64,000 nt of DNA from positions 32,001 through 96,000 of the IMG/VR virus record IMGVR_UViG_3300043395_003072, one strand, 5' to 3'. The position numbers were made by a program, and so were the translations under genes. The notes under the pieces were generated by a model that did not search any database, was not told the origin of the DNA, and saw only the letters and a program-made list of their open reading frames with translations. Within the stretch, counting starts at the first letter, position 1. The number at the start of each line of letters is the position of its first letter. This stretch comes from a virus. Below, in pieces: positions 4,844-32,100 of the stretch.

Positions 4844-5108
4844 AGAATCGTGGGATGAGGTATCTAATAAAGTCTATGATATCTTACATCTACTTCCATG
4901 GAATAAGGATCATGTAGACTTCTTAACTTATATTACTAAAGAATATTCTAAAGGTCTTGATGACTTTTATAAAGAGAATATCTTTATCTGTCCCCGCTGT
5001 GAAGAAAAATCTATTTTAGGAAGAATGTGTCCTGCTCATAAGCATGCAGTGTGCATTGCTCCTAAAGTAGAACTAGACTATTGTGATGACGAAGAAGATG
5101 AGTTGTGA
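4800..5108 (+). CDS. Hypothetical protein with possible zinc ribbon
   Basis: CPRC...CPAH...C; overlaps both neighbours. Confidence 0.55.
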   Translation: MTAQIVKTSHTIRFKESWDEVSNKVYDILHLLPWNKDHVDFLTYITKEYSKGLDDFYKENIFICPRCEEKSILGRMCPAHKHAVCIAPKVELDYCDDEEDEL

Positions 5109-6405
5109 ACATAATCATGAAGTGGCTTGTAATCATTGCGAGAAGCAATTTGTACACTTGCATGTGCATACAGAATACTCGCTTCTTGATGGAATTAATA
5201 AGGTAGATAGGCTCCCTAAGCATGTAAAAGCTATGAATCAACCTGCTGTTAGTCAAACAGATCATGGTACGATTTCTGGTTGTTACAAGTTTTACAAGGA
5301 GGCTAAAAAAGCTGGCGTTAAACCAATCATAGGCATGGAAGCTTATTATACGGTTGGTGATAGAGCTGCAAGAGAGCCAGATGAAATGGGTAAGAACTAT
5401 TATCATCTTATTCTCTTAGCTCAAAATAACGTCGGGCTACATAACCTTATTAAGCTATCATCTTACTCCTATACAGAAGGTATGTATCATAAACCTCGCA
5501 TTGATGATGAGTTGATTGCTCAATACTCAGAAGGCTTAATTGCTACTACTACTTGTCTTGGCAGTAGAGCTTCTCAGTTGATTCTAAACGGAGAAGTTAA
5601 AGCCGCAGAGAAATTGATACATCATCACAAGGCTATGTTCAAAGACAGGTTCCTTGTCGAGCTACAACCTCATGTAGATCCTGAACAGATGCTAGTAAAC
5701 AAGACCCTGCTTCAGATCGCTACTTCTAATGATCTTCCTATGGTTATTACTGGTGACTGCCATTACCAGCATGACCACGATAAGATGCACCATGAAGCTG
5801 CGCTTTGTATGCAAACTAAAACTAAACTATCCGATGAGAAGAGATTCTCTTTTGGAGAGCTAGAAGTACATGTATCTGATCATGATTGGATGTGGGCTAA
5901 AGCAGAAGCTCAAGGACTTCCTTATGATGTAATATCTAATACTGTATCTGTTGCTAATATGATAGATAGTGATTCTTACTTCATGGATCGAATGAATCGC
6001 TATCCTAAATATCAAGAGATTCCAGATAACCTTAGATCATTTGAGCTATTAGAAATAGAAGCTCAACATGGTTTATGGGCTAGGTTTAATAGTATGCCGC
6101 CTCAAGAATACAGAGACAGGCTTGCTCATGAACTCAAAGCTATTAAGAAGATGGGCTTTTCAGATTACATGCTAATCGTTGCTCAATTTATGAATGGCGC
6201 AAGAGATTATGGAGTGATGCATGGCCCTGGTCGAGGTTCCGCAGCTGGCAGTCTAGTTGCCTATGCTCTAAGAATTACAGAAGTCGATCCTATTAAATAC
6301 AACTTGGTGTTCTCTCGCTTTCTAAATGAAGGTCGCGGAGCTACACCCTTAATCTTTAACCATGAGATGGCTGCTATTGCAGACAGCCACCGACTACCTT
6401 TTTAA
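5083..6405 (+). CDS. dnaE: DNA polymerase III alpha, piece 1: PHP domain plus N-terminal palm segment (start may be ATG 5098)
   Basis: FVHLHVHTEYSLLDG, TDHG, KPIIGMEAY, HLILLAQN, KPRID, GDCHY, GPGRGSAAGSLVAYALRITEVDPIKYNLVFSRFLNEGR; ends just before the expected PDxDxD. Confidence 0.96.
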   Translation: MMTKKMSCEHNHEVACNHCEKQFVHLHVHTEYSLLDGINKVDRLPKHVKAMNQPAVSQTDHGTISGCYKFYKEAKKAGVKPIIGMEAYYTVGDRAAREPDEMGKNYYHLILLAQNNVGLHNLIKLSSYSYTEGMYHKPRIDDELIAQYSEGLIATTTCLGSRASQLILNGEVKAAEKLIHHHKAMFKDRFLVELQPHVDPEQMLVNKTLLQIATSNDLPMVITGDCHYQHDHDKMHHEAALCMQTKTKLSDEKRFSFGELEVHVSDHDWMWAKAEAQGLPYDVISNTVSVANMIDSDSYFMDRMNRYPKYQEIPDNLRSFELLEIEAQHGLWARFNSMPPQEYRDRLAHELKAIKKMGFSDYMLIVAQFMNGARDYGVMHGPGRGSAAGSLVAYALRITEVDPIKYNLVFSRFLNEGRGATPLIFNHEMAAIADSHRLPF

Positions 6406-6416
6406 GGATAATTACA

Positions 6417-6587
6417 ATGACTACTATTTATGCGATTCAGAATAAAACAAACAATAACTTTGTTCCTGTAAACGGCACTATGTTTTTCTCAAAGCGTAGT
6501 GATGCTCGTGCAGCTCGTGCAAACCTTCAGGGAAATGATTATCGAATTGTTACTACTACTGTTACCGATTGGAAGACAGCTAAGTAA
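6417..6587 (+). CDS. Small hypothetical protein, 56 aa, between dnaE pieces 1 and 2 (below ORF-track cutoff)
   Basis: AAGGA RBS at 6404-6408; MTTIYAIQNKTNNNFVPVNGTMFFSKRSDARAARANLQGNDYRIVTTTVTDWKTAK*. Confidence 0.7.
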   Translation: MTTIYAIQNKTNNNFVPVNGTMFFSKRSDARAARANLQGNDYRIVTTTVTDWKTAK

Positions 6588-6593
6588 CTAACA

Positions 6594-6610
6594 CCCACCT
6601 TTACAGTGGG
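6594..6610 (+). promoter_or_regulatory. Short GC-rich hairpin in a rare intergenic gap
   Basis: CCCAC-ctttaca-GTGGG inverted repeat right after the small ORF; no clean U-tract, function unknown. Confidence 0.3.
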
Positions 6611-6656
6611 CGCATCTCTTTAACATCCATCTCTTATAGGTTATGATGCTTCTCAT

Positions 6657-8252
6657 ATGCTCTCCAAAGATATATGTTTAAAATATATAGATACTAAAGT
6701 TATTGAAGAAAGATTAGATCAAATAGATCCTGACTTTCTAGAATATGAAGTAAAGATGATATCTCGAGAAGATATTAATCGAATACATAATGTACTAGTA
6801 GTTCAAGATTTTAAATTTGAAGAAAATCCTCATAACAGTATCTTGCTTTATATTACTGGGTTAACCGATCAATTTGATTTTGAAGCTATGAGATCGAATA
6901 TGATTGGTGGTGCACCCCCGGATATCGATATAGATCACGATGCGCTAGAGCGTGAGAAAGCTATTCAATGGTGTATTGATTATTGGGGGCGAGAAAAAGT
7001 CGCCAATATTATTACTCATGGAACTTTTAAACCTAAAAGTCTAGCTAGATCTTATTATCGTATTACTGAGAAGGATCAAGAAGATTTAACAGAACTTCTT
7101 AAAATGATTCCGCCTCCTAAGTATGGCAAGGAAGCCTCTCTCTCAGAAATACTAGAACAAAACCCAAATCTATCCGAAGAAGAGAAGTATAAAACCTTTC
7201 TTGAATTTGCAGATAGAATAGAAGACATGGTTGCAAACTTTGGTATTCATGCGGCTGGCGTAATTATTTCTGACAAAGAAATCTCAGATACTATTCCTAT
7301 CTGGAAGAATTCTAAAGCAGATAGAATTACTCAGTTTGATAAAGACGAATGCGAAGAGCTTGGGTTGCTCAAGTTCGACTTCCTCGGTATCGATACTATC
7401 TCTATTATCAAAGAGTGCGTTTCGCTTATCAAGAGAGACAAGGGTGTAGAAATACAGCCTTACTCTATCCCAGATGGCGATACTCTAGCTTATGAGAAAC
7501 TAAACGAAGGGCATCTTGTTGGTGTGTTTCAAATGGAGACCTCTGGTACTGCCAAGAGGTTAATCATGGATATTCAACCAACTAGCATTGAGGACCTTAG
7601 TGCTATTAGTGCCATTAATCGCCCTGGACCGTTACAAGCTAATCTTGATAAAACCTATATAGCTAACAAACTAAACAAAGCTCCACCAGATACGCTTCCT
7701 GCTCAAGTAGCTGAGATACTCAAAGCTTCATACTGGACCTTGATATATCAGGAGCAGATTATGTCTTTGTTTACTGAGCTTGCAGGGTTTACACCTCAAG
7801 AGGCAGATGAAGTACGTCGAGCTATGGGTAAGAAAAAGCTAGAAGTATTAGAGCCTTACAAAGATAAGTTTATTATAAAGTCCCAAGAAATTGGAGGCTT
7901 GCTCGCTGAATATGCTCAATCTTTATGGTCTGATATATTAGGTTTTGCAGATTACTGTTTAGCTGGAAATACTCAAGTTAAGATTAAACAAACTCCTTAT
8001 GTAAAAACTATTGCAGATATAGTAGATGACCAAATATCACCTACTGTTTTCTCTTATAATGGCTCTGAATTTATAAGACAGAGGGTTGAACAATGGCATT
8101 ATAAGGGAGTAAAACAAACTTACACTTATCTTTGCGAAAACGGAGCGTCAGTTACTTGCACTCCAGATCATAAATTCCTTACAATAGATAATAAATTTAA
8201 ATCTATTGATGAAATTTATACTAATAACTTAGAGATATACACCATAGAATAA
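6657..8252 (+). CDS. dnaE: DNA polymerase III alpha, piece 2: catalytic palm/thumb/fingers fused to split-intein N-half
   Basis: PPDIDIDHD, GIHAAGVII, GLLKFDFLG, GVFQME, INRPGPL, IYQEQIM, ADEVRRAMGKKK, GFADY|CLAGNT.... Confidence 0.97.
   Translation: MLSKDICLKYIDTKVIEERLDQIDPDFLEYEVKMISREDINRIHNVLVVQDFKFEENPHNSILLYITGLTDQFDFEAMRSNMIGGAPPDIDIDHDALEREKAIQWCIDYWGREKVANIITHGTFKPKSLARSYYRITEKDQEDLTELLKMIPPPKYGKEASLSEILEQNPNLSEEEKYKTFLEFADRIEDMVANFGIHAAGVIISDKEISDTIPIWKNSKADRITQFDKDECEELGLLKFDFLGIDTISIIKECVSLIKRDKGVEIQPYSIPDGDTLAYEKLNEGHLVGVFQMETSGTAKRLIMDIQPTSIEDLSAISAINRPGPLQANLDKTYIANKLNKAPPDTLPAQVAEILKASYWTLIYQEQIMSLFTELAGFTPQEADEVRRAMGKKKLEVLEPYKDKFIIKSQEIGGLLAEYAQSLWSDILGFADYCLAGNTQVKIKQTPYVKTIADIVDDQISPTVFSYNGSEFIRQRVEQWHYKGVKQTYTYLCENGASVTCTPDHKFLTIDNKFKSIDEIYTNNLEIYTIE
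7956..8249 (+). mobile_element. Split intein N-terminal half (IntN, 98 aa), cyanobacterial DnaE type
   Basis: Block A CLAGNTQV begins exactly after FADY; TVFS, VEQWHYKG, block B CTPDHKFLT (TxxH), IDEIY, then stop. Confidence 0.95.
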
Positions 8253-8263
8253 GGAACAATTAC

Positions 8264-8629
8264 ATGGCTACTCATGCAAATAACTCACTACGGGGTGTAC
8301 TTATTACAAGCTCTGTAGTCAATGTAGATGTAGATAATAATACTACTCTTGGTGAAGCTGAAGTAAGAACCTTGCTCCCCGTAGAACATGATCTTACTCC
8401 ACAAATAAACGGCTTTACTACTGAGTTCGTGCTTAATCCAGCTATTGGTCAAGGTACGGAACAATTCGTAGAGGTTTATTTAGATGGCCAAAGGCTTAAT
8501 AGAAGTTTTACTTCTGGTGGAGCAGACTACTATTTAAATCCAAATAGAGTTAGATTATTGTTATCTACTGATTTCTTATTAAACCAAAACTCAGTACTGA
8601 TTATTAAATATATCGAAGCTGCAGAATAA
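8264..8629 (+). CDS. Small virion/tail-associated beta-sandwich protein (paralog of 17921-18214)
   Basis: INGFTTEFVL.P...VEVYLDGQRL...ADY pattern resembling phage tail-associated repeats. Confidence 0.55.
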   Translation: MATHANNSLRGVLITSSVVNVDVDNNTTLGEAEVRTLLPVEHDLTPQINGFTTEFVLNPAIGQGTEQFVEVYLDGQRLNRSFTSGGADYYLNPNRVRLLLSTDFLLNQNSVLIIKYIEAAE

Positions 8630-8640
8630 AGGAGTCAACT

Positions 8641-11600
8641 ATGACAATAAACAGAAGAACTAAATTTAGACCTGGCTCCTTAGATGCTTCAATTGTAAAA
8701 GATAATACTGGACTTCTTATTGAAGAAGATACTGGCAAATTATCTGCCCAGCCTTTAGTTGATGAGGACCTTGTACTTCATCAACGAATAAATGATTTAT
8801 ATTGGAAAGACCCATTAGAGGTCTTTGACGATATTACCGCACCTGAAGATTATAGAGTTGGCGATACCTTTTATATAAAAGAAGCTCAACAAATATATAT
8901 CTATGGCGGAGTTCAAATTACTATCCCTGAAGGTGTTGATGTTTATCAACCACAGGCATGGATAGATGCTAATAGGCAAGAGGTTTTCTTTCCTATAGCT
9001 GTTGGTTTGGACAAAGACTCCCTTGCTACAAAAGCTTATGTTAACTCAGAGATATTGAATCTAATTGATAGCGCGCCTCAGTTACTCGATACTTTGAATG
9101 AGCTTGCTGCTGCAATTAATGATAATCCAAACTTTGCTACTGATATATTAAATATCACTACAAGTCTTCAAAACAGCAAAGCCGATAAAACATCCGTCTA
9201 TACTAAGACAGAGGTCGATAATAAAGACGATGCTATCTATGATTACGTAGATACTTTAAATGCTCAAGCTAGAAGAGTGCCTGACTATGTTGTTGGTGCT
9301 GGCGCTTATGCAGACGACAATAATATTCAAGAACTTTTAAATGCTATTGATCTCACTGAGCTTTCTGAATTTAAAACGATTTATCTTAGAAAAGGCACTG
9401 AGTTTCCAGTAGTAACAAATATACTTGCTCCTTCTTTAGTCTTTACTTCTTTTGATAAAAATATAATTAAACTAAATCAGATAAATATAAACACTCAAGA
9501 AGCTTTAGAAGATTCTCCTAGCATTATCAGCTTTAGTAATATTTCTGCTAATAAATTAACCATAGCTTCAACAACTGCTCAAGTAGAAGTATTTATAAAG
9601 TCATGTCAGTTTGATAGAATTGATATTCTTTCTTCAAATGCAATTGTACATATAGAAGATTCTCTTCTAAACAAAGTTATAGTAAATAACTCTGTATTAC
9701 ATATTAAAAACTCTATATTGGATTCCTTAGATAATATTGAGCTTTTAAATATTGCTGGCTCAAGTAAAGTAAATATCTTTACTTCCAAGCTAAGAGGTCA
9801 GACATTTATCGCTGATACTGCAAAGCTTTATTTAAATAAGAATGAGCTCTTTAATATAGAAAACAATCCTTATTTAATTGTTAATTCTCTTACGAGTCTT
9901 TTGAGTCTAGAAAACAATAGCTTTTTCTCTGACTCTAGTTTCGCTACTTACCACGTAGATGGTATTGGTCAGCTTTATGCTAACTTAAATAACTATGATC
10001 GTAGACTAAATCCCGCATTAGATTCTGATAGCTCTTATACTACTAAAATAACTGTACAACCATTATTAAATAATGGAGCTGGGCTTCCTGTACAAAACTA
10101 CTACCTTCCAGTAGGGTACGGTGATTTCTTTTATAATGACGAAAGAGCCAGGGATACTATTGCAGAAATGCTTCAAGTTCAACCTGGCATAGTCAAAAAC
10201 TACGACGATATAAATAATACGCTCACTCTCAGCTTAAACATCAGTACTGCAAATCTTAGTGACGAAGCTAGCATTGCTTATAAAGATAGAGTCAATAGTT
10301 TTACTAAAGCTAATACTTTTGCAGCTACGCTTACAGCGAATGCTGGAATTTATACTAACTCTATTAGCGCTTCTTTTGGCACTATCAGTAATCTAAAAAG
10401 TACAACAGCTTCTTTAAGCGACAACTCCAATAAAGTAGCCACTACAGCTTTTGTACAAGCCAAATATGCTCAATTAGAATTTGATCTTCAAGATCTTGAA
10501 CTCAATGAGTTGAAAGATGTTGATATTATAAGTCCTCAAGAAAAACATTACTTGACTTATATTCCTACATCTACTTTAACCGGAATTACTATAAATGCTC
10601 ATTGGGCTAACCGAAGTATAGATTCTTTTGATTTAACAGATAGTGGAACTCTCGTTAGAGTTGGAAATTCTGTATTTGTTTTAGCAGATATAGGTCGTCC
10701 AGCTTTGTTAGATCAAAGTGGCGCTGCCGTTGGACCAATGGATGCTTGGCCCTCTACTTCTCAGATCCTAAGATGGAGTGGTCAACAATACGATATTGCC
10801 GGAACTTTAACTAAAGGATCTGGCCAGTGGATATCTGATTTTGCTAATAATCCAATATTAAGAGCTACGGAAGAACCTCTAGGTGCTGCTGGTTACGATG
10901 GTTGGGGTAAAATAGCCTTAGCTGATTTTGAGGAAGTTAGAGATGGTTCTAACTCTACTAAAGCTGTAGTACCCAGCTTACTACACACTTACTATGCTAG
11001 TGTTACTTTATCTAATTTAGATTCTACTCAAGTAAGATTGGCTAGAGAAAATATTGGCTTTCCAAATAGTCCTCAAGATTCTACTTACTTAGTATACTCT
11101 GCTGATGATAACGCATGGGTTACTACTAAAACTGCAAGGCCTAGCTATCTACATGTAAGCGCAGATGTAAATCAAACCATATATCCTGGTTTATTTTACT
11201 CAAGCGCATCTGCTTCTACTTTAATGACTTTAACTTTACCTAATGACTCTTCTGGCGATATCTTTTTTAGAAAAGCTGACGATAATACTAAAACTGTAAG
11301 ATTTGTTGTAAAAAATAATAGTTTCCCAATAATTACTTCAGATAATGTAGTGCTCACTACTTTTGATGTTACATCTCAAGGGCAAACTATTGAGTTTTCT
11401 AAAGTAGAAATAGAAGGCTCTCCTTATTGGTTAGCTAAGGGTTACTATCAATCATCTACTACTGGCGCGATTGATAAAGAGTTCATACAAGATGCGGCCG
11501 CTGAGTTGTTCACACAGAACTCTCATGCCCCTGCGATATCTCTCACCTATCAAGATTCTGACCATAGAATAGATCTTGCTCTTAATTATGCAACCAATGC

Positions 11601-12384
11601 TCAAGTTCTAGCTGGCGTAGTAAACAATCTTCCTGTTACACCAGCTGGTGTAAAAGCAGCCTTAGATGCAAATGTCCCTCAAGGTGTTTTGTTTTCAGCA
11701 AACAATTTAAATGATTTAAATAATAAAGCTACTTCAAGAACCAATCTTGGTTTAAAAACAGCAGCTATATATGATGTTGGCTTTACAATAGATACTTTGC
11801 CTAAAAATGCTCAATCTCTTGCCGTTAATAAACTTATTGCTTACAATGGAACAGGTTTAGTTTCTGCTTCTGGCGATATATTAACCTCACTCGAAGCCAA
11901 TTCAACTACACCTGGACTTGCTACATTAGCAGATCCTTCACAACCACTAGCTGATCCAACAGCCCCTTCTGTAGCCAATACTGTAGTAACTTTAAGTTAT
12001 TTAAGCCAAATACTTAATAATTCAAATAGCTGGCTTACTGTTTTATTAAATCAAGTAGTTGAGGGGGAATCTACTGGTAACGGAGCCGGAGCTTTAACTT
12101 ATACTCCAATGACTGAAACAACTTTTGTTGCAGACTACTTAAAGTATTACAGCCTTTCTACTTCCCTCAGCTCTATAGTAATTACTCTTCCTGCAATAAC
12201 TTCTTTAAACTTAGGTAAAAGGATAGAGTTTAAGCTTGCTTCCAATACTGCTCCTAGAAAAGTAACAATACTTACTTCTGGATCAGATACTATTGATCAT
12301 GTGTACACTGAAATAGAACTCGTAGAACAAGGACAGCATATAGCTCTCATACCTGGCATATCAAATAACTGGGAGATCGCATAA
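8641..12384 (+). CDS. Long tail fibre protein
   Basis: Fibre motifs ATKAYV..APQLLDTLNELAAAINDNPNFAT, SNKVATTAFVQA, NNLNDLNNKATSRTNLGL; beta-helix-like N/I/S-rich section; C-terminal ITLPA..GSDTID..WEI module. Confidence 0.85.
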   Translation: MTINRRTKFRPGSLDASIVKDNTGLLIEEDTGKLSAQPLVDEDLVLHQRINDLYWKDPLEVFDDITAPEDYRVGDTFYIKEAQQIYIYGGVQITIPEGVDVYQPQAWIDANRQEVFFPIAVGLDKDSLATKAYVNSEILNLIDSAPQLLDTLNELAAAINDNPNFATDILNITTSLQNSKADKTSVYTKTEVDNKDDAIYDYVDTLNAQARRVPDYVVGAGAYADDNNIQELLNAIDLTELSEFKTIYLRKGTEFPVVTNILAPSLVFTSFDKNIIKLNQININTQEALEDSPSIISFSNISANKLTIASTTAQVEVFIKSCQFDRIDILSSNAIVHIEDSLLNKVIVNNSVLHIKNSILDSLDNIELLNIAGSSKVNIFTSKLRGQTFIADTAKLYLNKNELFNIENNPYLIVNSLTSLLSLENNSFFSDSSFATYHVDGIGQLYANLNNYDRRLNPALDSDSSYTTKITVQPLLNNGAGLPVQNYYLPVGYGDFFYNDERARDTIAEMLQVQPGIVKNYDDINNTLTLSLNISTANLSDEASIAYKDRVNSFTKANTFAATLTANAGIYTNSISASFGTISNLKSTTASLSDNSNKVATTAFVQAKYAQLEFDLQDLELNELKDVDIISPQEKHYLTYIPTSTLTGITINAHWANRSIDSFDLTDSGTLVRVGNSVFVLADIGRPALLDQSGAAVGPMDAWPSTSQILRWSGQQYDIAGTLTKGSGQWISDFANNPILRATEEPLGAAGYDGWGKIALADFEEVRDGSNSTKAVVPSLLHTYYASVTLSNLDSTQVRLARENIGFPNSPQDSTYLVYSADDNAWVTTKTARPSYLHVSADVNQTIYPGLFYSSASASTLMTLTLPNDSSGDIFFRKADDNTKTVRFVVKNNSFPIITSDNVVLTTFDVTSQGQTIEFSKVEIEGSPYWLAKGYYQSSTTGAIDKEFIQDAAAELFTQNSHAPAISLTYQDSDHRIDLALNYATNAQVLAGVVNNLPVTPAGVKAALDANVPQGVLFSANNLNDLNNKATSRTNLGLKTAAIYDVGFTIDTLPKNAQSLAVNKLIAYNGTGLVSASGDILTSLEANSTTPGLATLADPSQPLADPTAPSVANTVVTLSYLSQILNNSNSWLTVLLNQVVEGESTGNGAGALTYTPMTETTFVADYLKYYSLSTSLSSIVITLPAITSLNLGKRIEFKLASNTAPRKVTILTSGSDTIDHVYTEIELVEQGQHIALIPGISNNWEIA

Positions 12385-12875
12385 TGGCTTATAAAATAAC
12401 TAATGTTAATGGCGATAGAGGTCCTAATATAGTATTACAAACCACTCAGATACCTGAGGGTTCTAATCTTTACTTTACTGAACAAAGAGGCTTTGATGCT
12501 TCTCTTTTAAATAGAACTCAAAATCCTACTTATTTAGACAAGCATTTTTATACTATTGGAGCTTTAGAACAAAAAGTTGGAGATCTTTATTGGCATATTA
12601 TAAATCCAATCAAGATTGTCCAAGTATTTGCTAAAGTAAAAATTCCATCAGCTGGTAATAGTATTGCACTTTATGTACAAAAAAACGGTGGAAATTCTCC
12701 AGATAAACTACTATATGATATAACGATTAATCCTGGAGCTCTTTCTGCTACCGTTGGTGGCGACAAGATATTGCAGCCTGGAGACTATATTCAAATAGAT
12801 GTAGCTTCTATAGGTACAGTAAGTCCTGGTGCAGATTTAACTCTATCATTCAAATACCATAACATTCTATCTTGA
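12384..12875 (+). CDS. Tail-fibre-associated protein
   Basis: TAATG coupling; TTQIPEGSNLYFT fibre-type repeat; C-terminal GDYIQIDVASIGTVSPGADLT beta domain. Confidence 0.6.
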   Translation: MAYKITNVNGDRGPNIVLQTTQIPEGSNLYFTEQRGFDASLLNRTQNPTYLDKHFYTIGALEQKVGDLYWHIINPIKIVQVFAKVKIPSAGNSIALYVQKNGGNSPDKLLYDITINPGALSATVGGDKILQPGDYIQIDVASIGTVSPGADLTLSFKYHNILS

Positions 12876-12882
12876 GGTCATT

Positions 12883-14979
12883 ATGCCAATTCTAAAGAAA
12901 TCAAATGCTGTTACATTTCTTCCTTACGACATTGCACTATATAGTGCTTCTTATAAAAATCCATTTTATCAACAGTATGCAGCCGGCTATAACACTTTAT
13001 TAATCGAAGATGAAGATCAGTCTACACTTTACCTAGATGGTGAAGCTTATGAATCTACAAGCTTAGTACCTTTCTTTGAAAAGAAACCACAAGCATTTAA
13101 TCCTGCTCGCCAAGATATATCTACCATGTATGAAAAGAATACTTTATTTACAAAGTATTCTTTTGCAAATGCTTGTCTTCAAACTCACTCATTAGTAACT
13201 ACTCAAAATAGTTACAATTCAGATAATAATTTAGGTTTAACTAATTTATCTAAAGCAGCAGATTTAACAGGAAATATGTCAACTGCTTTATTGCAAAGTG
13301 TAATCATTGGTGGTGAGACTTTTACTTTTTATCTAACAAGGCATTGGCCAAGAATAGTAAGCGCCCAAAACTCTTATGATCCTGCAGAACAAAAACTCAT
13401 TATGATTCAGGGGACTTCTTTTGAAAATTCGACTGCAATAGTCGAATACTCTATCCCTCTAGATACACTTGATTATACTTCTTATAGTACAATTCCTGGT
13501 TATACTTTTCTTTATATAGATACTGTAAATCGTTATATTTATTTTCTTGATAATGCTAGAAGAAACGGATCAGCTGCTTATACTCATGAATACTTTAATA
13601 AAGTAGTTGCTTTAAAATTTAACATCCCATCACAAGATGGGGTATTAAGTTTTGCTGCTTCTCCTACAGTACTTATTCATAATAGATCTACTGCTAGTTT
13701 TGTTCTCTTCCCTATGCTTGCTAGAACAATTCAAAGCTCAATTATATCTTTTTGTGGATTAGATGCATTCAATAACCTTGTTTTTGTAGAGCAGTATAAT
13801 AGAGCAGCAGCTTATCCTAGATCTGCAACTCCTGCTAATAAGTACTGGCTGCGTTTTCATATAGTAAAATATACTTCAGGAACTCCAAGCGTAACAAGAA
13901 CAGTAGACCTATCCTCATCTTGGGATATTGGTGCTTCTCCCAGTGCTTGGGCTCCTGGACATTCAGCGAGTATGCTTAGTTATCCTACCAAGTTTATTTC
14001 AGACAGCACTACTCCTACAATAAAAAGATCCTTACTTGTACTTCCTCAGCAAACTTATCAAATTGCTCCAATTGTCATTACCTGGAACTCTGCTTTAGAC
14101 TCAAGCAATGTTAGTACTACTCCATTTTCTATGGCTGCAGTTAGCCAATCAAATTTAACTTATCCATCAGGTACTACTTCTTTAGACTATATTGATATTC
14201 GATATGATAACGTAGTAAGTAACGCTTCTTCTGCTTATCAAAGCATATATGGTTTTCAAAAAGCTATTGTAACCAAATTAGCAGGCTCAACCTATATTAC
14301 TTTCTTTACTTCCTGGAAGTATCAAGTAAATATGGATGTAGCTAAAACAATAGCAACAAGAAAGATGAATGCTATTTGTTATAGACTTACAAATCTTGAG
14401 ACTAACCCAGCCTTAGAGTATATTCAAAGCTTCCCCATTGAGGCTTTAGATTATTTCTTAACTGACTCAGATACAACGTTAAATGTTATAGATAATGATG
14501 GAATCAGTTTTTACTCCTTAAGCCCTTCTGGTTGGGTAAATACCTCAAGAGAAGTTGGAGCCTTTACATCTATTGCTCTGGATAGTTTTGGAAGATTTTG
14601 GGCTACAAAGATTGCTGGTAAAAATTATTTACAATGGGATCAGCCATACTCAATTTGGTTACGCCCTTTCTATGACCCTAAGTTAGAGTTGCATATTATT
14701 CCTAGGACTTCTGCTTATACTACTAGCATTGAGTTTACAGATACCGATGTAGAATATAACGGTGTAAACATTAACAATACCCTCAAAGTTAACGCTTATA
14801 ACGCGCTTGGTCAAAGAATCGCTACTACTGTATTGCTTTCTATTGAAGGACCCAATATGGAGTTCCAAGTAGGAGGTACTCAACTTCAAGTAACTACTTC
14901 TACTATTCAAGATACTAGCGTTCCCGTAGTGATTACAGGCCCAGGTTATGTTAACGTTACTGCTAGCTTCGTGATCTAA
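12883..14979 (+). CDS. Large beta-rich virion/adhesin-like protein (paralog of 15887-17920)
   Basis: S/T/Y/aromatic-rich beta composition; C-terminal Ig-like domain shared with 15887-17920. Confidence 0.55.
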   Translation: MPILKKSNAVTFLPYDIALYSASYKNPFYQQYAAGYNTLLIEDEDQSTLYLDGEAYESTSLVPFFEKKPQAFNPARQDISTMYEKNTLFTKYSFANACLQTHSLVTTQNSYNSDNNLGLTNLSKAADLTGNMSTALLQSVIIGGETFTFYLTRHWPRIVSAQNSYDPAEQKLIMIQGTSFENSTAIVEYSIPLDTLDYTSYSTIPGYTFLYIDTVNRYIYFLDNARRNGSAAYTHEYFNKVVALKFNIPSQDGVLSFAASPTVLIHNRSTASFVLFPMLARTIQSSIISFCGLDAFNNLVFVEQYNRAAAYPRSATPANKYWLRFHIVKYTSGTPSVTRTVDLSSSWDIGASPSAWAPGHSASMLSYPTKFISDSTTPTIKRSLLVLPQQTYQIAPIVITWNSALDSSNVSTTPFSMAAVSQSNLTYPSGTTSLDYIDIRYDNVVSNASSAYQSIYGFQKAIVTKLAGSTYITFFTSWKYQVNMDVAKTIATRKMNAICYRLTNLETNPALEYIQSFPIEALDYFLTDSDTTLNVIDNDGISFYSLSPSGWVNTSREVGAFTSIALDSFGRFWATKIAGKNYLQWDQPYSIWLRPFYDPKLELHIIPRTSAYTTSIEFTDTDVEYNGVNINNTLKVNAYNALGQRIATTVLLSIEGPNMEFQVGGTQLQVTTSTIQDTSVPVVITGPGYVNVTASFVI

Positions 14980-14998
14980 TAATAATCTGGAGGGAATC

Positions 14999-15700
14999 AT
15001 GCCACAATTTGAGTTTTTAGATAGAATAGTTAATACTATTTCTCTACAAACAAAGCCTGCATCTAAATTTAAGAAAAAAACCACTTCTTATTTTTACGAT
15101 ACTGATTCCCTTCAGGTTTTTAAAAAACTAAATTCAAACTCTTATCTTGCTGACTTTACTTTTCTTAATGTAAATACTCGTGCAAGCTTATTATCTACAA
15201 TAATATCTTCAAGTATATTTTCAGTACCTACTGATTATATATATATGAATAGTTCTACTTCTATTGAAATAGACTATTTTAGTCCTCAAACTACTCAAGA
15301 AAAAACAGAAACTCTCTTATTCTTTTCACAAGAAGCTTCTGCTAATTCACTTCACTACTTAAATGAATCAGCTCAACTAAACTATTTGTTAAATAGTTAT
15401 ACAGCTTATACTGACTTAAATCAGTATACTGATATTTCTTTAATAAATAGTTCCGAATCTTTACTTGTAGCTTCAATTCAAGATAGCTATCAGGACTATC
15501 CTATAGGCTCTGCTGCTTCTGTATCTTTAAATACTCCTGCTTATATCTATGTTCAAAAGGTAAATGACGATTTAATTCTTGCTTTAGATTTACAAGAGAA
15601 TTTAATTATTGAATATACCGAACCTCAAGATGTTGAGGAGTATGTGCCTCCAAATCCTGAAGACCTTATAATCATAACTCTAAAAGAATTTTGGGGCTAA
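14999..15700 (+). CDS. Hypothetical S/T/Y-rich protein
   Basis: GGAGG RBS; lies within the fibre cassette. Confidence 0.6.
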   Translation: MPQFEFLDRIVNTISLQTKPASKFKKKTTSYFYDTDSLQVFKKLNSNSYLADFTFLNVNTRASLLSTIISSSIFSVPTDYIYMNSSTSIEIDYFSPQTTQEKTETLLFFSQEASANSLHYLNESAQLNYLLNSYTAYTDLNQYTDISLINSSESLLVASIQDSYQDYPIGSAASVSLNTPAYIYVQKVNDDLILALDLQENLIIEYTEPQDVEEYVPPNPEDLIIITLKEFWG

Positions 15701-15903
15701 AAATGACTGAATTACAACTCGTTGAAGGCTGTCTTTATGTTTATGAAGATAGCGTATTAATAATGACCACCAGGGGCAACCCTACTCTATATAATCAACC
15801 TTTTCTAACCTTAGAAGAAGCTCAAGCTTGGTATCTTACCACAGTTCCTCAAGAGCAAATACAAGTAGAAGAAGAGGAGGTTCAAGATGAGAGTACTATC
15901 TAA
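15691..15903 (+). CDS. Small acidic hypothetical protein (likely start ATG 15703)
   Basis: NP...PF.T.EEAQAW pattern; coupled to both neighbours. Confidence 0.55.
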   Translation: MGLKMTELQLVEGCLYVYEDSVLIMTTRGNPTLYNQPFLTLEEAQAWYLTTVPQEQIQVEEEEVQDESTI

Positions 15904-17920
15904 TACTATTATAAAAAGACTTGGTGCTTTAAATTACGAGTATCCTCAAAACAAAATATTAGCAGGTTTTGATGCTAATAATATTTATGCAAATGATCTC
16001 AAAATTCATAATACGTCTAAATTAGAAAGACCTTATAAAGAGACTTTCTTCTCTACGCACGATACTTCAAACACAATTCCTTACAAAAATTATTTGGCTA
16101 CGGAATTTCCTTGCAACTATTCTCCTCGATCAAATGTAGAAGCAGAAGACAATACAAGAAACTACACTGCTGGAAAAATAGATAAAACTCCTATTTGGAA
16201 AAACACTGCATACATGAATGTTCTTGATAAAAACTTAAGAGCGAAATGTGGAACTCTTTACAGTTTTCAAGATTCAGCATCAGTAAATCACTTTGTGCAG
16301 ATAGATTATAATGAACCTATTCTTTCCGCTTCTCACAACTACACAATCAATATTTCCCTAGTTCAAGGAAATGACTTATCTAGTATTCAGGCTAGTACTA
16401 TTAAGAGTTATTCTAATGGAATAATTACTCCTTTTAATCCAAACTATGTTTATACTGGAGTACCTTCCATTTTCTGGATAGATACAACTAGAAAATTTAT
16501 TTATTTAAATATGTATGCTGGTTATACTTATAGTGCAGATATTAATAGTTATCAGTACCAAGCTAGACTTTTATATAGAGTTAGTTATACTACAGTTGCA
16601 GATGGCGGTTCCCTCTCTCTTGGCAACTATGAGTACATAGCTACTCCAGGAACAAGCTTTTATACAATGGCCTACATGCATGCCGATCAATTGTTTCTTT
16701 GTGGTTTTGGTAACAATGGCAATCCAGTATACTTAAGAGCAGTTGAAAAAAATGCTGCAGGCTCTATCAATAGCTGGTACAACGCAGCGCCTTATACTGA
16801 TACACACTATCATAGGTATATAATATTTGAACACGTACTTAGTAATAATACTATTCTCACTTTGCACGATTTTGACTCTACTACTGGTTGGGGCCTTGGC
16901 GCTAACATAAACGATACTTCAAATAGAATAACTGGCCATTGCTCCCCTACTTGTTTTGAACAAGTAGATAGCGACAATTATAATGCTTTTTTTCCTGGGT
17001 TTAATACAAATAATCAACTGACTCCAATCCTTATAAAATGGAATAAAGCTACAAATGTTTTTCAACCAATAAGAGTACCTACAAGCATACAAGCTACAAT
17101 TAAAAATCAGTATCAAGATGTACATGACGATGCAGTTCCTTACACCTATACATTTAGTAACACTACATTAAGTCTTAGTTTAAAAGTTGTAGCTCCTGTA
17201 GTTATGGAAATTGTTACTGGTGAATTAGGTAATAAATATTTAGTAGTATATAATGACCTATTCAATAACAGAATGAGAGCTTATTGCACTTCTACCGGCG
17301 TTAGAAATATTGTTACATTCTCTATAACAAATAGTTGGTATACTCTAACTCACCTACAGACTGCTTCTATTGATTCTTTGTTTTCTTTGCCATTAAATTC
17401 TAATAGAACTAAATTAGCTGTTGCAGAAGCTGCAAATGTTTCTCTTTGGTCATTTAACGAAATAAATTACTGGCAAAAAACTATTACTACTCCAGCTATT
17501 GCCTATTATCTTGTTAGAAAAGATGATAATTCTTTTTATGCAGTAACTATGGAATCGGATACACTTGGAGATTTAGCTATTACTCAGTATCCAGAGAGAA
17601 GATATTCTACTTCTAGGATTCTTGAAATTAATGAAAATGCCAGTTCTAAGCAAATAGTTATAAATCTTGGTTCAGATGTTTCTTATACAGGTACTTCTCA
17701 AAATAAAACTATTTCTGTAGATGTATTGGATAATGGTTTAAGGTCTGTTGAGTCTGTAACCCTTACTATAAGCTCAGATAATGCAGTTTTTGATACTACT
17801 CCTCAAGCTAATACTACTACAATAGTAACTTCATCTACTGCATCTACTTCAGTGCCTTTAATTCTAAACTCTCCAGGTGTAGTATTTATCAGCGCTAAAT
17901 TTACTGATCTGGAGGTTTAA
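15887..17920 (+). CDS. Large beta-rich virion/adhesin-like protein (paralog of 12883-14979)
   Basis: GGAGG RBS; IFWIDTTRKFIYL vs FLYIDTVNRYIYF, LTPILIKWN vs IAPIVITWN, and a shared C-terminal Ig-like domain. Confidence 0.55.
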   Translation: MRVLSNTIIKRLGALNYEYPQNKILAGFDANNIYANDLKIHNTSKLERPYKETFFSTHDTSNTIPYKNYLATEFPCNYSPRSNVEAEDNTRNYTAGKIDKTPIWKNTAYMNVLDKNLRAKCGTLYSFQDSASVNHFVQIDYNEPILSASHNYTINISLVQGNDLSSIQASTIKSYSNGIITPFNPNYVYTGVPSIFWIDTTRKFIYLNMYAGYTYSADINSYQYQARLLYRVSYTTVADGGSLSLGNYEYIATPGTSFYTMAYMHADQLFLCGFGNNGNPVYLRAVEKNAAGSINSWYNAAPYTDTHYHRYIIFEHVLSNNTILTLHDFDSTTGWGLGANINDTSNRITGHCSPTCFEQVDSDNYNAFFPGFNTNNQLTPILIKWNKATNVFQPIRVPTSIQATIKNQYQDVHDDAVPYTYTFSNTTLSLSLKVVAPVVMEIVTGELGNKYLVVYNDLFNNRMRAYCTSTGVRNIVTFSITNSWYTLTHLQTASIDSLFSLPLNSNRTKLAVAEAANVSLWSFNEINYWQKTITTPAIAYYLVRKDDNSFYAVTMESDTLGDLAITQYPERRYSTSRILEINENASSKQIVINLGSDVSYTGTSQNKTISVDVLDNGLRSVESVTLTISSDNAVFDTTPQANTTTIVTSSTASTSVPLILNSPGVVFISAKFTDLEV

Positions 17921-18214
17921 ATGAGTAATGTCTCTTATCCAATAACAATAATCAATTCTACGATTAATATAACTGGTGAAAATTCAGTTGGTACTATAAT
18001 CACTACTCATGATCTCTCCTCTTTTATTGATGGCGAGACTGTAGTCTTTCCCTTATCTCCAGCGCCTAACCCAAGTAATGTATTTGTAGTAAGCCTAGAT
18101 GGTTTGGTTTTAACTCCAAACGCAGACTATACAAAAACAAGCAGCTTGCTTACTTTGAATTTTGATGCTCCTCAACCAGGAGCTAAACTTTTAGCTTTCT
18201 ATCAGGATCTTTAA
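17921..18214 (+). CDS. Small tail-associated beta-sandwich protein (paralog of 8264-8629)
   Basis: HDLSSFIDGETVVFPLSP...VSLDGLVL...ADY vs HDLTPQINGFTTEFVLNP...VYLDGQRL...ADY. Confidence 0.6.
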   Translation: MSNVSYPITIINSTINITGENSVGTIITTHDLSSFIDGETVVFPLSPAPNPSNVFVVSLDGLVLTPNADYTKTSSLLTLNFDAPQPGAKLLAFYQDL

Positions 18215-18215
18215 A

Positions 18216-19766
18216 ATGCCAAGAGTTACAAAAGTAAAAGTAGATGGCTTAGATATCCCTAATATATTCTCTCCAGGATATTCATTAGACTCTTCAGGTT
18301 TAGTTATAGCTTCTAGCACACCAGGTCCTCAAGGTCCTCAAGGAGCACCTGGTCCACAAGGCGATAAAGGTGATACTGGAGACCAAGGCCCTCCAGGTGT
18401 TAATGCTTTATGGAACTATACTGGAGAATATAATAATGGTGCCGAATATGCTGTAGGAGATATAGCTACTTATGCAGGAAGTCTATGGTACAGATCAGAT
18501 TCTAATGGAGGAAATGTTGGTGATGTTCCTGGTCTCGGTAGCAGTTTTTGGGATCTGCTTTCTTCTAAAGGTGATCAAGGACTTCAAGGGGAGCAGGGTA
18601 TCCAAGGCTTGCAAGGGCCTCAAGGAGAACCTACTGACATTACAGATTTAGAACAAAATCGTTTATATTCACAGGTTATTTATGTAAATAATTCAGTAGA
18701 AGATATTCAACCTGCTATAGATCAAGTAACTAGTCAAAACATTTTAGTTTGGACATCTCCAGGTTCTTATGGTGGTTCTACTTTAACTTTAAATGATAAA
18801 ATACTATTGAAATTAAAAGCAGAAGGTTCTTCTACTGGTGGTTTTGGTATTGCAGAATTACCTGAAAGAGCTTTAACAATTACTGGCTCTGCCTCAACTA
18901 GAAACCTTATTGAAGGTTTTCAAATAGAAGGTTTAGCTACAATTAATGGTACTCAAGGAAGACATGCTTTTATTAACTGCCAACTTTTAGGTGGTTTAAC
19001 AATTAATAATGCTTGTTCAAATTTTATAACTATTCGTGATTGCGAAATTGTTGGACCTGTAAGTATTGCTGCAAGCGTTACTGCTGTTATTTATTTTATT
19101 AATTGTAATTTTCTAGGCGTTACTTTTAGTAACTCTGCTACGCCTACTCAAGTTATTATTGCTAATTGCAATGGATTCCCTTCAGCTTCTGCTTTGTCAG
19201 TAACTTTAGTGGGTCAGAATGGATTTTCAGATCTTTCTATTAGAGGTTTCTTTTCTGCTTTAACGCTTCCAAATGCATTAGCATTCACTGGAAATACTAA
19301 TCAGTTAACTAATGGTGCCGGATTCATTACTAGCAGCCAAGCACCAGTACAATCTGTCAATACTGCTACTGGGGCCGTTACTATTAGTGGACAAAACACA
19401 AACACAAACCACACTCCAATAAACTACACTACTTCAGGTAATACGTTAACGCAACACCTTGCTGGTATAGACTCTAAGTTAAATTTCTTACAATTAACTT
19501 ACGAAAGAAAAACAACTAGCTTTAATGCTTCAACTAGTTATCATTATTCAGTAGATACTAGCGCTGGAGATGTTATTGCTACGTTACCATTAAGCTCCTC
19601 TGCAGGAAGAGTTATTGGTTTTAAACGTAGGGCTGGTAATCACGTTTTAACCGTAACTCCTTCTGGTTCAAATACAATTGATAGTAATGGAGCTTATAGT
19701 TTAACTCATCAAGAGTATATACGTTTACTTGATAGTGGTTTAGGTGATTGGGAGATTATCAAATAA
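18216..19766 (+). CDS. Tail fibre/spike with collagen-like repeats and beta-helix
   Basis: Two Gly-X-Y tracts flank a YAVGDIATYAGSLW module; repeated (F/I)xNC beta-helix rungs; VQSVNTATGAVTI; C-terminal ATLP..GSNTID..WEI module like 8641-12384. Confidence 0.8.
   Translation: MPRVTKVKVDGLDIPNIFSPGYSLDSSGLVIASSTPGPQGPQGAPGPQGDKGDTGDQGPPGVNALWNYTGEYNNGAEYAVGDIATYAGSLWYRSDSNGGNVGDVPGLGSSFWDLLSSKGDQGLQGEQGIQGLQGPQGEPTDITDLEQNRLYSQVIYVNNSVEDIQPAIDQVTSQNILVWTSPGSYGGSTLTLNDKILLKLKAEGSSTGGFGIAELPERALTITGSASTRNLIEGFQIEGLATINGTQGRHAFINCQLLGGLTINNACSNFITIRDCEIVGPVSIAASVTAVIYFINCNFLGVTFSNSATPTQVIIANCNGFPSASALSVTLVGQNGFSDLSIRGFFSALTLPNALAFTGNTNQLTNGAGFITSSQAPVQSVNTATGAVTISGQNTNTNHTPINYTTSGNTLTQHLAGIDSKLNFLQLTYERKTTSFNASTSYHYSVDTSAGDVIATLPLSSSAGRVIGFKRRAGNHVLTVTPSGSNTIDSNGAYSLTHQEYIRLLDSGLGDWEIIK
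18324..18632 (+). repeat. Collagen-like Gly-X-Y coding repeats (about 18324-18398 and 18570-18632)
   Basis: GPQGPQGAPGPQGDKGDTGDQGPPG and GDQGLQGEQGIQGLQGPQGEP. Confidence 0.9.
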
Positions 19767-19775
19767 AGGAAATAA

Positions 19776-19889
19776 ATGAAAATTGTCTCCAAGCAAGATG
19801 CTGGAGAGCAAGTAGTTTACGATATTGGAGTGGCTAGCTTAGAAGGTCATAACAATTTCTTACTAAACAATGGGCTCGTAGCATCTAAC
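19776..19889 (+). mobile_element. Split intein C-terminal half (IntC, 38 aa)
   Basis: MKIVSKQDAGEQVVYDIGVASLEGHNNFLLNNGLVASN followed by Cys+1 (TGT 19890); blocks F (VYDIGV) and G (ASN/C); has its own AAGGA RBS. Confidence 0.95.
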
Positions 19890-21038
19890 TGTTTTAACAA
19901 AGCGCATAGTGTTAGTTACTCTGTTCTAACTTACATTACTGCATACCTAAAGGCTCACTACCCTGTTGAGTTTTTCACCTCTCTGATGTCTACTCGATCA
20001 AAGACTTTGCAACCTAAAACCTGGGCTATTAAAGCTCCAGAATATATCAAGGAAGCAAAACACTTTGGAGTAGATATTAATCCTCCATCTGTAAATCAAA
20101 GTAGCTTTGAGTTTACTGTTATAGGCTCAGAGATTTACTTTGGACTTAATGCTATTAGGGATGTAGGGCAAACAGCTGCAAGAGCTATTATTGCAGCTAG
20201 AGGCTCTATAGCTTTTAAAGATATTAAAGACTTTCTTAATAGAGTTAATCTTCAGAAGGTAAACACTAAGGTCTTTGAGGCTCTTGTTAAAGCAGGTGCT
20301 TTTGACAAGATGGGTTATACTCGATCAGAGCTTCTAGAAAATACTTCTGCTATTTATTCTTATATAAAAGATATAGAAGATTATAAACAGCGAGAAATTG
20401 ATTTTGTTGAAAGAGAAAATCACAATCTTAGAGTTGTTCCCTTAATAGAGCGTAGAGATTTTCTTAGAAATGAAATCAAGAAGATAGAGAATAGAATAGC
20501 TAAAGCTAAAGATAAGCCTGAAGATGCTGCCACACTTCTAGCTTATCAAGAAGAACTTCAACCTCTAGAAGATCAAGCACTTAAACGTTTACCTGCTTTG
20601 CAAAAGTTTGAGCTTCCAGTATTTCCTGAACTTCAAAGGAATAAACTTGTGCCTTTGAATCTTAAAGAAATTATGGAGCAAGCTCAATATATAGGTTGCT
20701 ATATTGGTGGTCATCCACTAGATCTTATTTCTATTGAGAAAGATGATCTGGATACTCTAGAAGAAGATACGTATGCAACTGTAGCCGGTGTTGTTCTATC
20801 TACTAAAACTGTAAAAACAAGATCAGGCAAGATGATGGCTTTCTTTGAAATAGATGATTCTACTAGCAGTGCAGAGATTGTAGTATTTCCGCAGCTCTGG
20901 TCTAAGGTAGAAGCTCTAGAAGTAAAAGAGACTGATATTTTAAAGTGCCGAGTTAAAGTTGAATCTACAGATCCAGATATAAAACTAATTCTTCAATCAA
21001 TAGAAAGATTTAAAATACAAAATGAAATGGACACCTGA
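19776..21038 (+). CDS. dnaE: DNA polymerase III alpha, piece 3: split-intein C-half plus fingers end, HhH and OB-fold
   Basis: ...GLVASN|CFNKAHSVSYS...AYLKAHYPVEF, PPSVNQS, FGLNAIRDVG, LVKAGAFD, GGHPL, TRSGKMMAFFEIDD...EIVVFP. Confidence 0.97.
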   Translation: MKIVSKQDAGEQVVYDIGVASLEGHNNFLLNNGLVASNCFNKAHSVSYSVLTYITAYLKAHYPVEFFTSLMSTRSKTLQPKTWAIKAPEYIKEAKHFGVDINPPSVNQSSFEFTVIGSEIYFGLNAIRDVGQTAARAIIAARGSIAFKDIKDFLNRVNLQKVNTKVFEALVKAGAFDKMGYTRSELLENTSAIYSYIKDIEDYKQREIDFVERENHNLRVVPLIERRDFLRNEIKKIENRIAKAKDKPEDAATLLAYQEELQPLEDQALKRLPALQKFELPVFPELQRNKLVPLNLKEIMEQAQYIGCYIGGHPLDLISIEKDDLDTLEEDTYATVAGVVLSTKTVKTRSGKMMAFFEIDDSTSSAEIVVFPQLWSKVEALEVKETDILKCRVKVESTDPDIKLILQSIERFKIQNEMDT

Positions 21039-31827: not shown

Positions 31828-32100
31828 ATGGGTCTATTTGAAGAACGCCAAGCTTCTGCTAAGAAAGTAGTCGCTTTACAAAACGAAATCATCTCTCTTA
31901 AGACACAGCTACAAGCAGTACCTGATTGTTCTGCTTGTCAGAAAGAGCTTGCTGCTCTCAAAGCTCAAGTAGAGTCGCTCAAAGCTCAAGTAGCTAAGCT
32001 ACAAGAGCAAGAGACTCCAGTTGTTCAAGAAGAGAAGCCTAAGCGTCGTGGTCGTCAACCTGCCCAAGATAAGCAAGAAGACGAAGAAGATGCCTTGTAA
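31828..32100 (+). CDS. Small coiled-coil protein with CxxC and basic KPKRRGR tail
   Basis: Heptads, CSAC, EEKPKRRGRQ. Confidence 0.6.
   Translation: MGLFEERQASAKKVVALQNEIISLKTQLQAVPDCSACQKELAALKAQVESLKAQVAKLQEQETPVVQEEKPKRRGRQPAQDKQEDEEDAL

Follow-up and report, generated by a model that had tools for sequence, protein, structure and literature searches.

How can a phage keep its replicative DNA polymerase when the gene for it is opened by a long block of other genes? The question is raised by a 64,000-nt stretch of viral DNA that we call the window (positions 32,001 to 96,000 of IMG/VR record IMGVR_UViG_3300043395_003072, a virus record of 158,462 bp), from a phage present in many freshwater samples. 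In the window, dnaE consists of three plus-strand genes (5083-6405, 6657-8252 and 19776-21038), which we name pieces 1 to 3. Piece 2 ends in the N-terminal half of a split intein (IntN), piece 3 begins with the C-terminal half (IntC), and a cassette of other genes, the cargo, lies between the two. As the best explanation overall, we think it likely that DnaE is made in three pieces, two of them trans-spliced, and that the gap in the intein has been colonised by a tail/virion block that is now an ordinary hypervariable island.

Three dnaE genes and a split intein

The open reading frame (ORF) of piece 2 has 531 aa, and its C-terminal part reads GFADY-CLAGNT..TPDHKF..IE before the stop codon (the hyphen marks the intein border). 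The ORF of piece 3 has 420 aa, and the IntC at its N-terminus closes with ASN-CFNKAHS. A preliminary description of the window had predicted that removal of both halves gives a product of 433+382=815 aa, and that IntN and IntC are separated by 11,523 bp with nine plus-strand ORFs. The ORFs, the arithmetic and the distance all check out. The size of the product stands, but part of the polymerase is missing from it: piece 1, which is also a separate gene in the listed relatives of the clade, encodes the PHP domain and the first palm segment. The break between pieces 1 and 2 carries no intein. It falls inside the palm (window 5083-6935), leaves piece 1 with a short tail and piece 2 with an extension of about 85 aa, and is conserved in the clade, with a spacer of about 0.25-4 kb that holds variable genes. 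BLASTP yielded no alignment that would make the N-terminus of piece 2 a duplicated palm.

IntN (7956-8249) and IntC (19776-19889) are intact halves of a split DnaE intein. Both lie above the NCBIfam cut-offs (TIGR01445, 46.7 bits against 24.5, for IntN; TIGR01443, 22.2 bits against 15.6, for IntC), and for each half 14 of 14 PDB matches are DnaE-intein structures of the Npu/Ssp type. The insertion site is FA[D/E]Y-CFNK, which is PolIII-alpha insertion point a, and the split falls between blocks B and F. Known inteins at point a are all split and cyanobacterial (PMC4760082); among cellular matches, the best 80 of 512 are nearly all cyanobacterial. The IntC of the window carries a VASLEG motif like that of the distant L002/L003 group and unlike that of the closer relatives L014 and L372.

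Several observations bear on whether the halves splice. The window intein has Cys1, TxxH, the terminal Asn and Cys+1, which make up the set of five catalytic residues named for split inteins by Dassa et al. 2009 (PMC2677866). All 49 distinct phage IntN carry Cys1 and TxxH, and all 116 homologs matched by a pattern for the IntC junction have Asn-Cys; the gene for IntC and the C-terminal DnaE part (DnaE-C) is found in at least 116 protein clusters at 90% identity. The mean identity of IntN within the clade is only 37%. In addition, 13 distinct intein-less relatives (59-65% identity) encode GFADY-CFNK in one ORF, so that the predicted splice junction is a natural contiguous allele. Since the catalytic residues are invariant at such low IntN identity, and since contiguous FADY-CFNK alleles exist, we conclude from the sequences that pieces 2 and 3 are very probably joined by protein trans-splicing through a split intein at DnaE site a. 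A model of the IntN-IntC complex scores 0.85 against 0.00 for the best control, at least 93% of its contacts agree between runs, and the partner pLDDT is at least 75. Among solved pairs 51 of 78 reach this mark, among mismatched pairs 2 of 108; we take the model as likeness and not as binding, because the homologous Npu/Ssp complexes are already solved.

The order of the genes is not an artefact of assembly. The 5' junction is present in five other assemblies, with contigs from runs X3 and X5 spanning it as well, and the 3' junction is present in L102, L109 and run X5. These independent assemblies and unrelated runs across each junction rule out a misassembly at the cassette edges (8253/19775). 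Site-specific excision or inversion was also rejected, as no att-like repeat pairs the two junctions. The contigs of two RNA runs (X17 and X18) contain both halves and parts of the cassette; no RNA-level joint of IntN and IntC was found in them, and such contigs show presence only, not transcription. The window has no match to a structured RNA in Rfam at E<=0.1.

Cassette contents and module exchange

The features of the locus are collected in Table 1. The preliminary description had called all nine cargo genes fibre- or adhesin-like. The label fits cargo 2 and cargo 9, which have direct tail-fibre matches, and cargo 4 and cargo 7 by fold or paralogy; it does not extend to the other five. The model of cargo 4 matches a propeller (Z 10.6, rmsd 5.1, 265 residues aligned) and an invasin Ig domain (Z 8.4, rmsd 2.1, 81 aligned). 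For cargo 9, Foldseek gives no match at E<=0.001, and the top non-significant rows are (polysaccharide) lyases and phage tail fibres; we claim no enzyme activity for it for want of a significant match. The preliminary description saw no recognisable endonuclease in the gap, and no nuclease family is found in the window cargo by Pfam or PHROG.

Table 1. Features of the dnaE locus, in window coordinates
Feature	Position	Strand	Remarks
DnaE piece 1	5083..6405	+	PHP domain and first palm segment; no intein; PF02811, PF07733 (model positions 3-102); start possibly a few codons later
56-aa ORF between pieces 1 and 2 (intein-less break)	6417..6587	+	homologs at the same place in L001-L003 and L010
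DnaE piece 2, N-extein (433 aa)	6657..7955	+	~85-aa extension, DIDID palm, fingers; ends GFADY
IntN, 98 aa and stop	7956..8252	+	Cys1, block B TxxH
Cargo 1, 121 aa	8264..8629	+	small LDGxxL..Y family; opens most cassettes; paralog of 17921-18214; viral-only clusters in ESM Atlas
Cargo 2, 1247 aa, long tail-fibre-like	8641..12384	+	PHROG tail-fibre matches at residues 123-245, E to 1.5e-14
Cargo 3, 163 aa	12384..12875	+	98-100% identical among conspecifics
Cargo 4, 698 aa, beta-propeller and C-terminal Ig-like domain	12883..14979	+	AF2 model, pTM 0.67, pLDDT 62.5
Cargo 5, 233 aa	14999..15700	+	
Cargo 6, 66 aa	15703..15903	+	
Cargo 7, 677 aa, propeller-like and Ig-like	15887..17920	+	paralog of cargo 4; low-confidence Atlas model resembles propellers
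Cargo 8, 97 aa	17921..18214	+	paralog of cargo 1; marks the left limit of the tract common to L372
Cargo 9, 516 aa, tailspike-like	18216..19766	+	collagen repeats (PF01391), PHROG tail fibre, parallel beta-helix (AF2 pLDDT 87.5)
Cargo 9 stop and putative ribosome-binding site (AAGGA) for IntC	19764..19775	+	function inferred
IntC, 38 aa	19776..19889	+	blocks F and G, terminal Asn
DnaE C-extein (382 aa)	19890..21038	+	Cys+1 first; HhH and OB domains

Across the clade, a widespread set of aquatic phages without cultured members, all 21 complete intein-bearing loci carry cargo, with gaps of 2.1-13.5 kb that hold mostly tail/virion-type genes. The cassettes vary, no single gene is common to all of them, and none is empty. 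Matches of 70 cargo representatives include collagen, LamG, carbohydrate-binding modules (CBM), one M15 peptidase and PHROG tail families. Among the same 70, Pfam and PHROG find no HNH, GIY-YIG, LAGLIDADG or Vsr family, although an unrecognised nuclease family is not fully excludable. One of these proteins matches Peptidase M15, so the gap may in addition harbour a gene of the lysis type. In one subclade (L007:7858-15875, L009:10275-19420), the cargo consists of 14-17 small genes in repeated units.

The cargo is exchanged between phages, and cassettes differ both within and between species, as the preliminary description had proposed in calling the module swappable. Contigs with an identical DnaE-C protein have at least three different 3' ends (516 aa; 120+436+114 aa; 120+414+114 aa) and three alleles of cargo 4. 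Downstream of IntC, the DNA of conspecifics is 97-99% identical; in two regions, 13104-14375 and 18268-19766, the figure drops to about 45-60%. The first of these regions is the centre of cargo 4, whose within-species alleles are 51-66% identical; in the second, a trio of genes (120+414/436+114 aa) replaces all but the first ~18 codons of cargo 9. A segment of cargo 2 (11064-11427) differs as well, and the swapped modules assort independently among conspecifics. One transfer crosses species: between L372 and the window, DnaE-C is 85% identical, cargo 5 and 7 are 42-44% identical, and cargo 8 and 9 are 95-97% identical. The shared tract (~1.9 kb, 92-99% DNA identity) runs from about 17921 to 19780-19828, where it ends in the first ~50 nt of IntC, so that the last module has IntC as its right-hand limit. 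The remaining breakpoints (11064/11427, 13104/14375-14438, 17921 and 18268) are internal to the cassette and fall in conserved stretches of it, and no swap that uses the N-terminal dnaE part or IntN as its left arm was seen.

The polymerase flanks had been proposed as recombination arms. Since the other breakpoints are internal and no swap through the N-terminal part was seen, this model holds for one edge only, the start of IntC at one module; it is not supported for the left edge or as a general mechanism. Intein-less relatives point the same way. In L158/L208 and L211, homologs of the cassette genes stand in similar order 3-8 kb upstream of dnaE, flanked by two genes that precede recA; the gap between these two measures 3.7-4.7 kb there versus less than 750 bp in intein-bearing phages. 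In L159/L209, the homologs are reversed and directly upstream of the core gene. Fibre-like genes occupy the palm break of dnaE in L165, L178 and L211. In partial intein-less genomes, one fibre query against five records gave no match, with no positive control, and a small-gene profile matched in G008 and G010 only. Because intein-less relatives hold homologous genes outside dnaE, the cassette can do without the polymerase flanks. This, together with the internal breakpoints, makes the gap a tolerant landing site, as in the landing-pad idea of the preliminary description, and not a dedicated swapping device.

With these data the cassette can be set against hypervariable islands: it is hypervariable among near-identical genomes, two of its nine genes encode receptor-binding-type proteins by sequence and two more by fold, and LamG, collagen and CBM genes occur in relatives. 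From folds and variability, the cargo probably encodes virion proteins with a role in host recognition.

Origin of the nested arrangement

Distant phages have endonucleases at the same site. In L273 (10001-13757), a free-standing LAGLIDADG gene lies between IntN and IntC; by its sequence this locus, at the cyanobacterial site, is a fractured gene of the classical type. In L039/L040 (L039:8389-11239), LAGLIDADG is fused in frame to IntN and followed by IntC. In both forms the LAGLIDADG ORF overlaps the start of IntC by 29 nt. Two other distant phages have surface-protein genes in the same gap, a LamG gene in L365 (2-5776) and a CBM (CBM4/9) gene and one more in L368 (7490-15920). Their exteins are just 35-44% identical to those of the window, so that surface-protein cargo in this gap occurs in more than one clade. 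L368 has additional contiguous inteins; one of these carries an HNH-like insert and sits nine residues inside the C-extein.

We propose the following sequence of events. An ancestor, modelled on the distant phages, would have had a homing endonuclease at the split. With the intein in two genes, the DNA between them could accept any insert that preserves a ribosome-binding site for IntC, and a pre-existing block of tail/virion genes would have moved in. The replicative DnaE would be produced in three pieces, pieces 2 and 3 being trans-spliced. The cassette, whose variability is observed, would evolve as an ordinary hypervariable island for host recognition. Modules would be exchanged by homologous recombination, mostly via conserved patches inside the cassette, with the start of IntC serving as right-hand arm for the last module, as seen at one module position. 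RecA, encoded 1.8 kb upstream of piece 2, would serve these exchanges. The arrangement may also be self-locking: an intact dnaE would be regained only by removing both halves and losing or moving the cassette, and an intein with no endonuclease would for that reason persist across the clade.

Several points weigh against this account. Only four of the nine window cargo genes have an assigned function or fold, and some cargo of relatives is not fibre-like, as the M15 peptidase match indicates. No endonuclease-bearing form was found inside the clade of the window; the ancestral step is therefore modelled on phages that are distant, with an IntN only 32-37% identical to that of the window. The intein-less L148, L152 and L156 have no cassette homolog within the available DNA. 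Finally, dnaE alleles with and without the intein are mixed on both extein trees (3-4 changes), and because these trees are unrooted, loss and gain are not separable on them.

The interspersion bears on an alternative in which intein and cargo form a mobile unit, such that the block converts intein-less dnaE through both exteins and spreads by the new host range it brings, hitch-hiking in place of homing. The patchy distribution of the intein suits this, as does the intein-bearing L019, which stands among intein-less alleles (branch values 97/92 and 95 in two trees). L032, inside the intein, and L158, outside dnaE, have homologous genes in the same order, and some pairs of IntC are 92-100% identical while their exteins are 63-68% identical, a possible exchange of IntC. 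We nevertheless regard a mobile unit as unlikely. A single branch (98/87) sets the 28 sampled IntN of the clade apart from the others, and for the most part their subgroups track those of the exteins, which fits one old gain followed by losses. The IntN of L019, L018, L204 and L032 are long-branched and not near-copies of a donor, and no recent transfer of a whole cassette was seen. These sequences are most simply read as one old gain of the intein, together with several losses and relocations; a less simple course, in which intein and cargo were gained repeatedly, is possible.

The nesting could instead be kept for regulation, with the polymerase tied to read-through of the tail block or to conditional splicing, so that replication is coupled to virion expression. 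The cassette and dnaE genes are indeed co-oriented, with spacing of at most 20 nt or short overlaps (only 11 nt from the IntN stop to cargo 1), no terminator-like site is found at either junction, and no intein-bearing locus without cargo was found. Such a role is improbable given that the cargo varies six-fold in size and content, that the gene is contiguous in intein-less relatives, and that promoter-like sites are no commoner than in shuffled sequence. An alternative 3' module carries its own putative ribosome-binding site for IntC.

That the intein halves dock without splicing, as a non-covalent clasp, we hold to be highly improbable. DnaE already tolerates one intein-less break, and the HKF of block B varies to HNF, HSF or HHF in some relatives, which would suit a clasp; the clade-wide invariance of C1, TxxH, the terminal Asn and Cys+1 at 37% mean IntN identity would not. 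A fractured gene of the classical type, its endonuclease hidden unrecognised among the cargo, for which one could cite five unannotated window genes and the Vsr-like enzymes that once went unrecognised (PMC2677866), or else an assembly artefact, is extremely unlikely given no nuclease family in 70 cargo proteins, no gene in all cassettes, and junctions confirmed in independent samples.

Known systems and other interruptions

The ingredients of the trans-spliced, cassette-bearing dnaE are known singly: the cyanobacterial split intein, fractured genes and host-recognition islands. The cyanobacterial split DnaE intein (Ssp PCC6803, Npu; PMC4760082) has the same site, split position and lengths as the phage intein. 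Its halves lie in separate chromosomal loci, whereas the phage halves are linked in one gene run around the cassette; and the phage DnaE, unlike the cyanobacterial one, has a further intein-less break. The IntN of the two are about 35% identical, with within-group means of 37% (phage) and 63% (cyanobacteria). Fractured genes (Dassa et al. 2009, PMC2677866; phage MIJ3 PolB, PMC6892783) likewise consist of two linked pieces of an essential phage replication gene, each with a half-intein and with foreign DNA between, but they hold a free-standing endonuclease where the window clade holds 2-13 kb of tail/virion-type genes, and the three dnaE loci of Dassa et al. are at sites other than the cyanobacterial one (PMC2677866). 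Host-recognition clusters or metaviromic islands (PMC7029224, citing Mizuno et al. 2014) are likewise hypervariable, non-syntenic blocks of fibre, collagen, LamG and carbohydrate-binding genes between core genes. As described there, they lie in the structural module; the window cassette is inside one core gene on the replication strand, with an intein half as its right edge. No paper that places structural genes between the linked halves of a split intein turned up, in a search that left most subscription papers outside. New here are the maps of swaps within and across species, the intein-less relatives with relocated cassettes, the endonuclease forms at the same site and the two more cargo lineages. 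Among cultured phages the best INPHARED matches are just 25-36% identical, and no host-bearing record was found for the phage.

The arrangement offers a concrete reason why an intein with no endonuclease can persist, and a case in which a phage houses its most variable genes in the scar of a selfish element. The Npu/Ssp intein is a workhorse of protein ligation, and the clade supplies more than 110 natural, divergent relatives of it, candidates for orthogonal or faster pairs.

The IntN of L273 and L039 are on average 57% identical to cyanobacterial IntN at the same site. Dassa et al. 2009 (PMC2677866) proposed endonuclease-bearing split loci, which they had at other dnaE sites, as the step before uncoupled halves. 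L273 and L039/L040 may represent intermediates on the way to the cyanobacterial split: their LAGLIDADG loci at the exact split are what that model predicts but lacked at this site, and the origin of the largest known split-intein group thereby becomes testable. On the IntN tree, L365 and L368 lie between the clade and the cyanobacteria, and L039/L273 among the cyanobacteria at a fork without resolution; with about 104 columns and no root, the tree does not allow the direction of phage-cyanobacteria transfer to be read. We tentatively suggest that aquatic phages could be the reservoir and source of the cyanobacterial split DnaE intein, with stages kept at one site (endonuclease fused to IntN, free between the halves, cargo between the halves, unlinked halves). 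In the cargo lineages, up to three distant phage lineages, the intein might then persist or spread nuclease-free, locked to a host-recognition cassette. One cyanobacterial-type dnaE-N with IntN (L286) occurs in a metagenome-assembled genome labelled Sphingobacterium; it groups with Limnothrix and is probably binning contamination.

Other features were noted along the way. One end of the window's genome (G000:C1:144000-158462, L376) looks different in composition and has many overlapping long ORFs on both strands, one of them of 2138 aa. Several relatives have dnaE interrupted elsewhere. At L099:1506-1828 (also in L010, L011 and L013), dnaE-N contains a group I intron (RF00028, 66.8 bits) that carries a 324-aa ORF on the reverse strand, and L151, 100% identical to the window protein, breaks at the same place. 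In L218 (10945-12023), L183, L008 and L215, dnaE is broken at the RRAMG motif, with a group I intron match in L218. L180 has a LAGLIDADG ORF directly at the FANY junction and no intein halves. In L001 (6080-8088), L007, L009 and L010, recA is broken at the GVMYGN motif, some with an ORF in the gap, and this break is probably an intron or endonuclease site.

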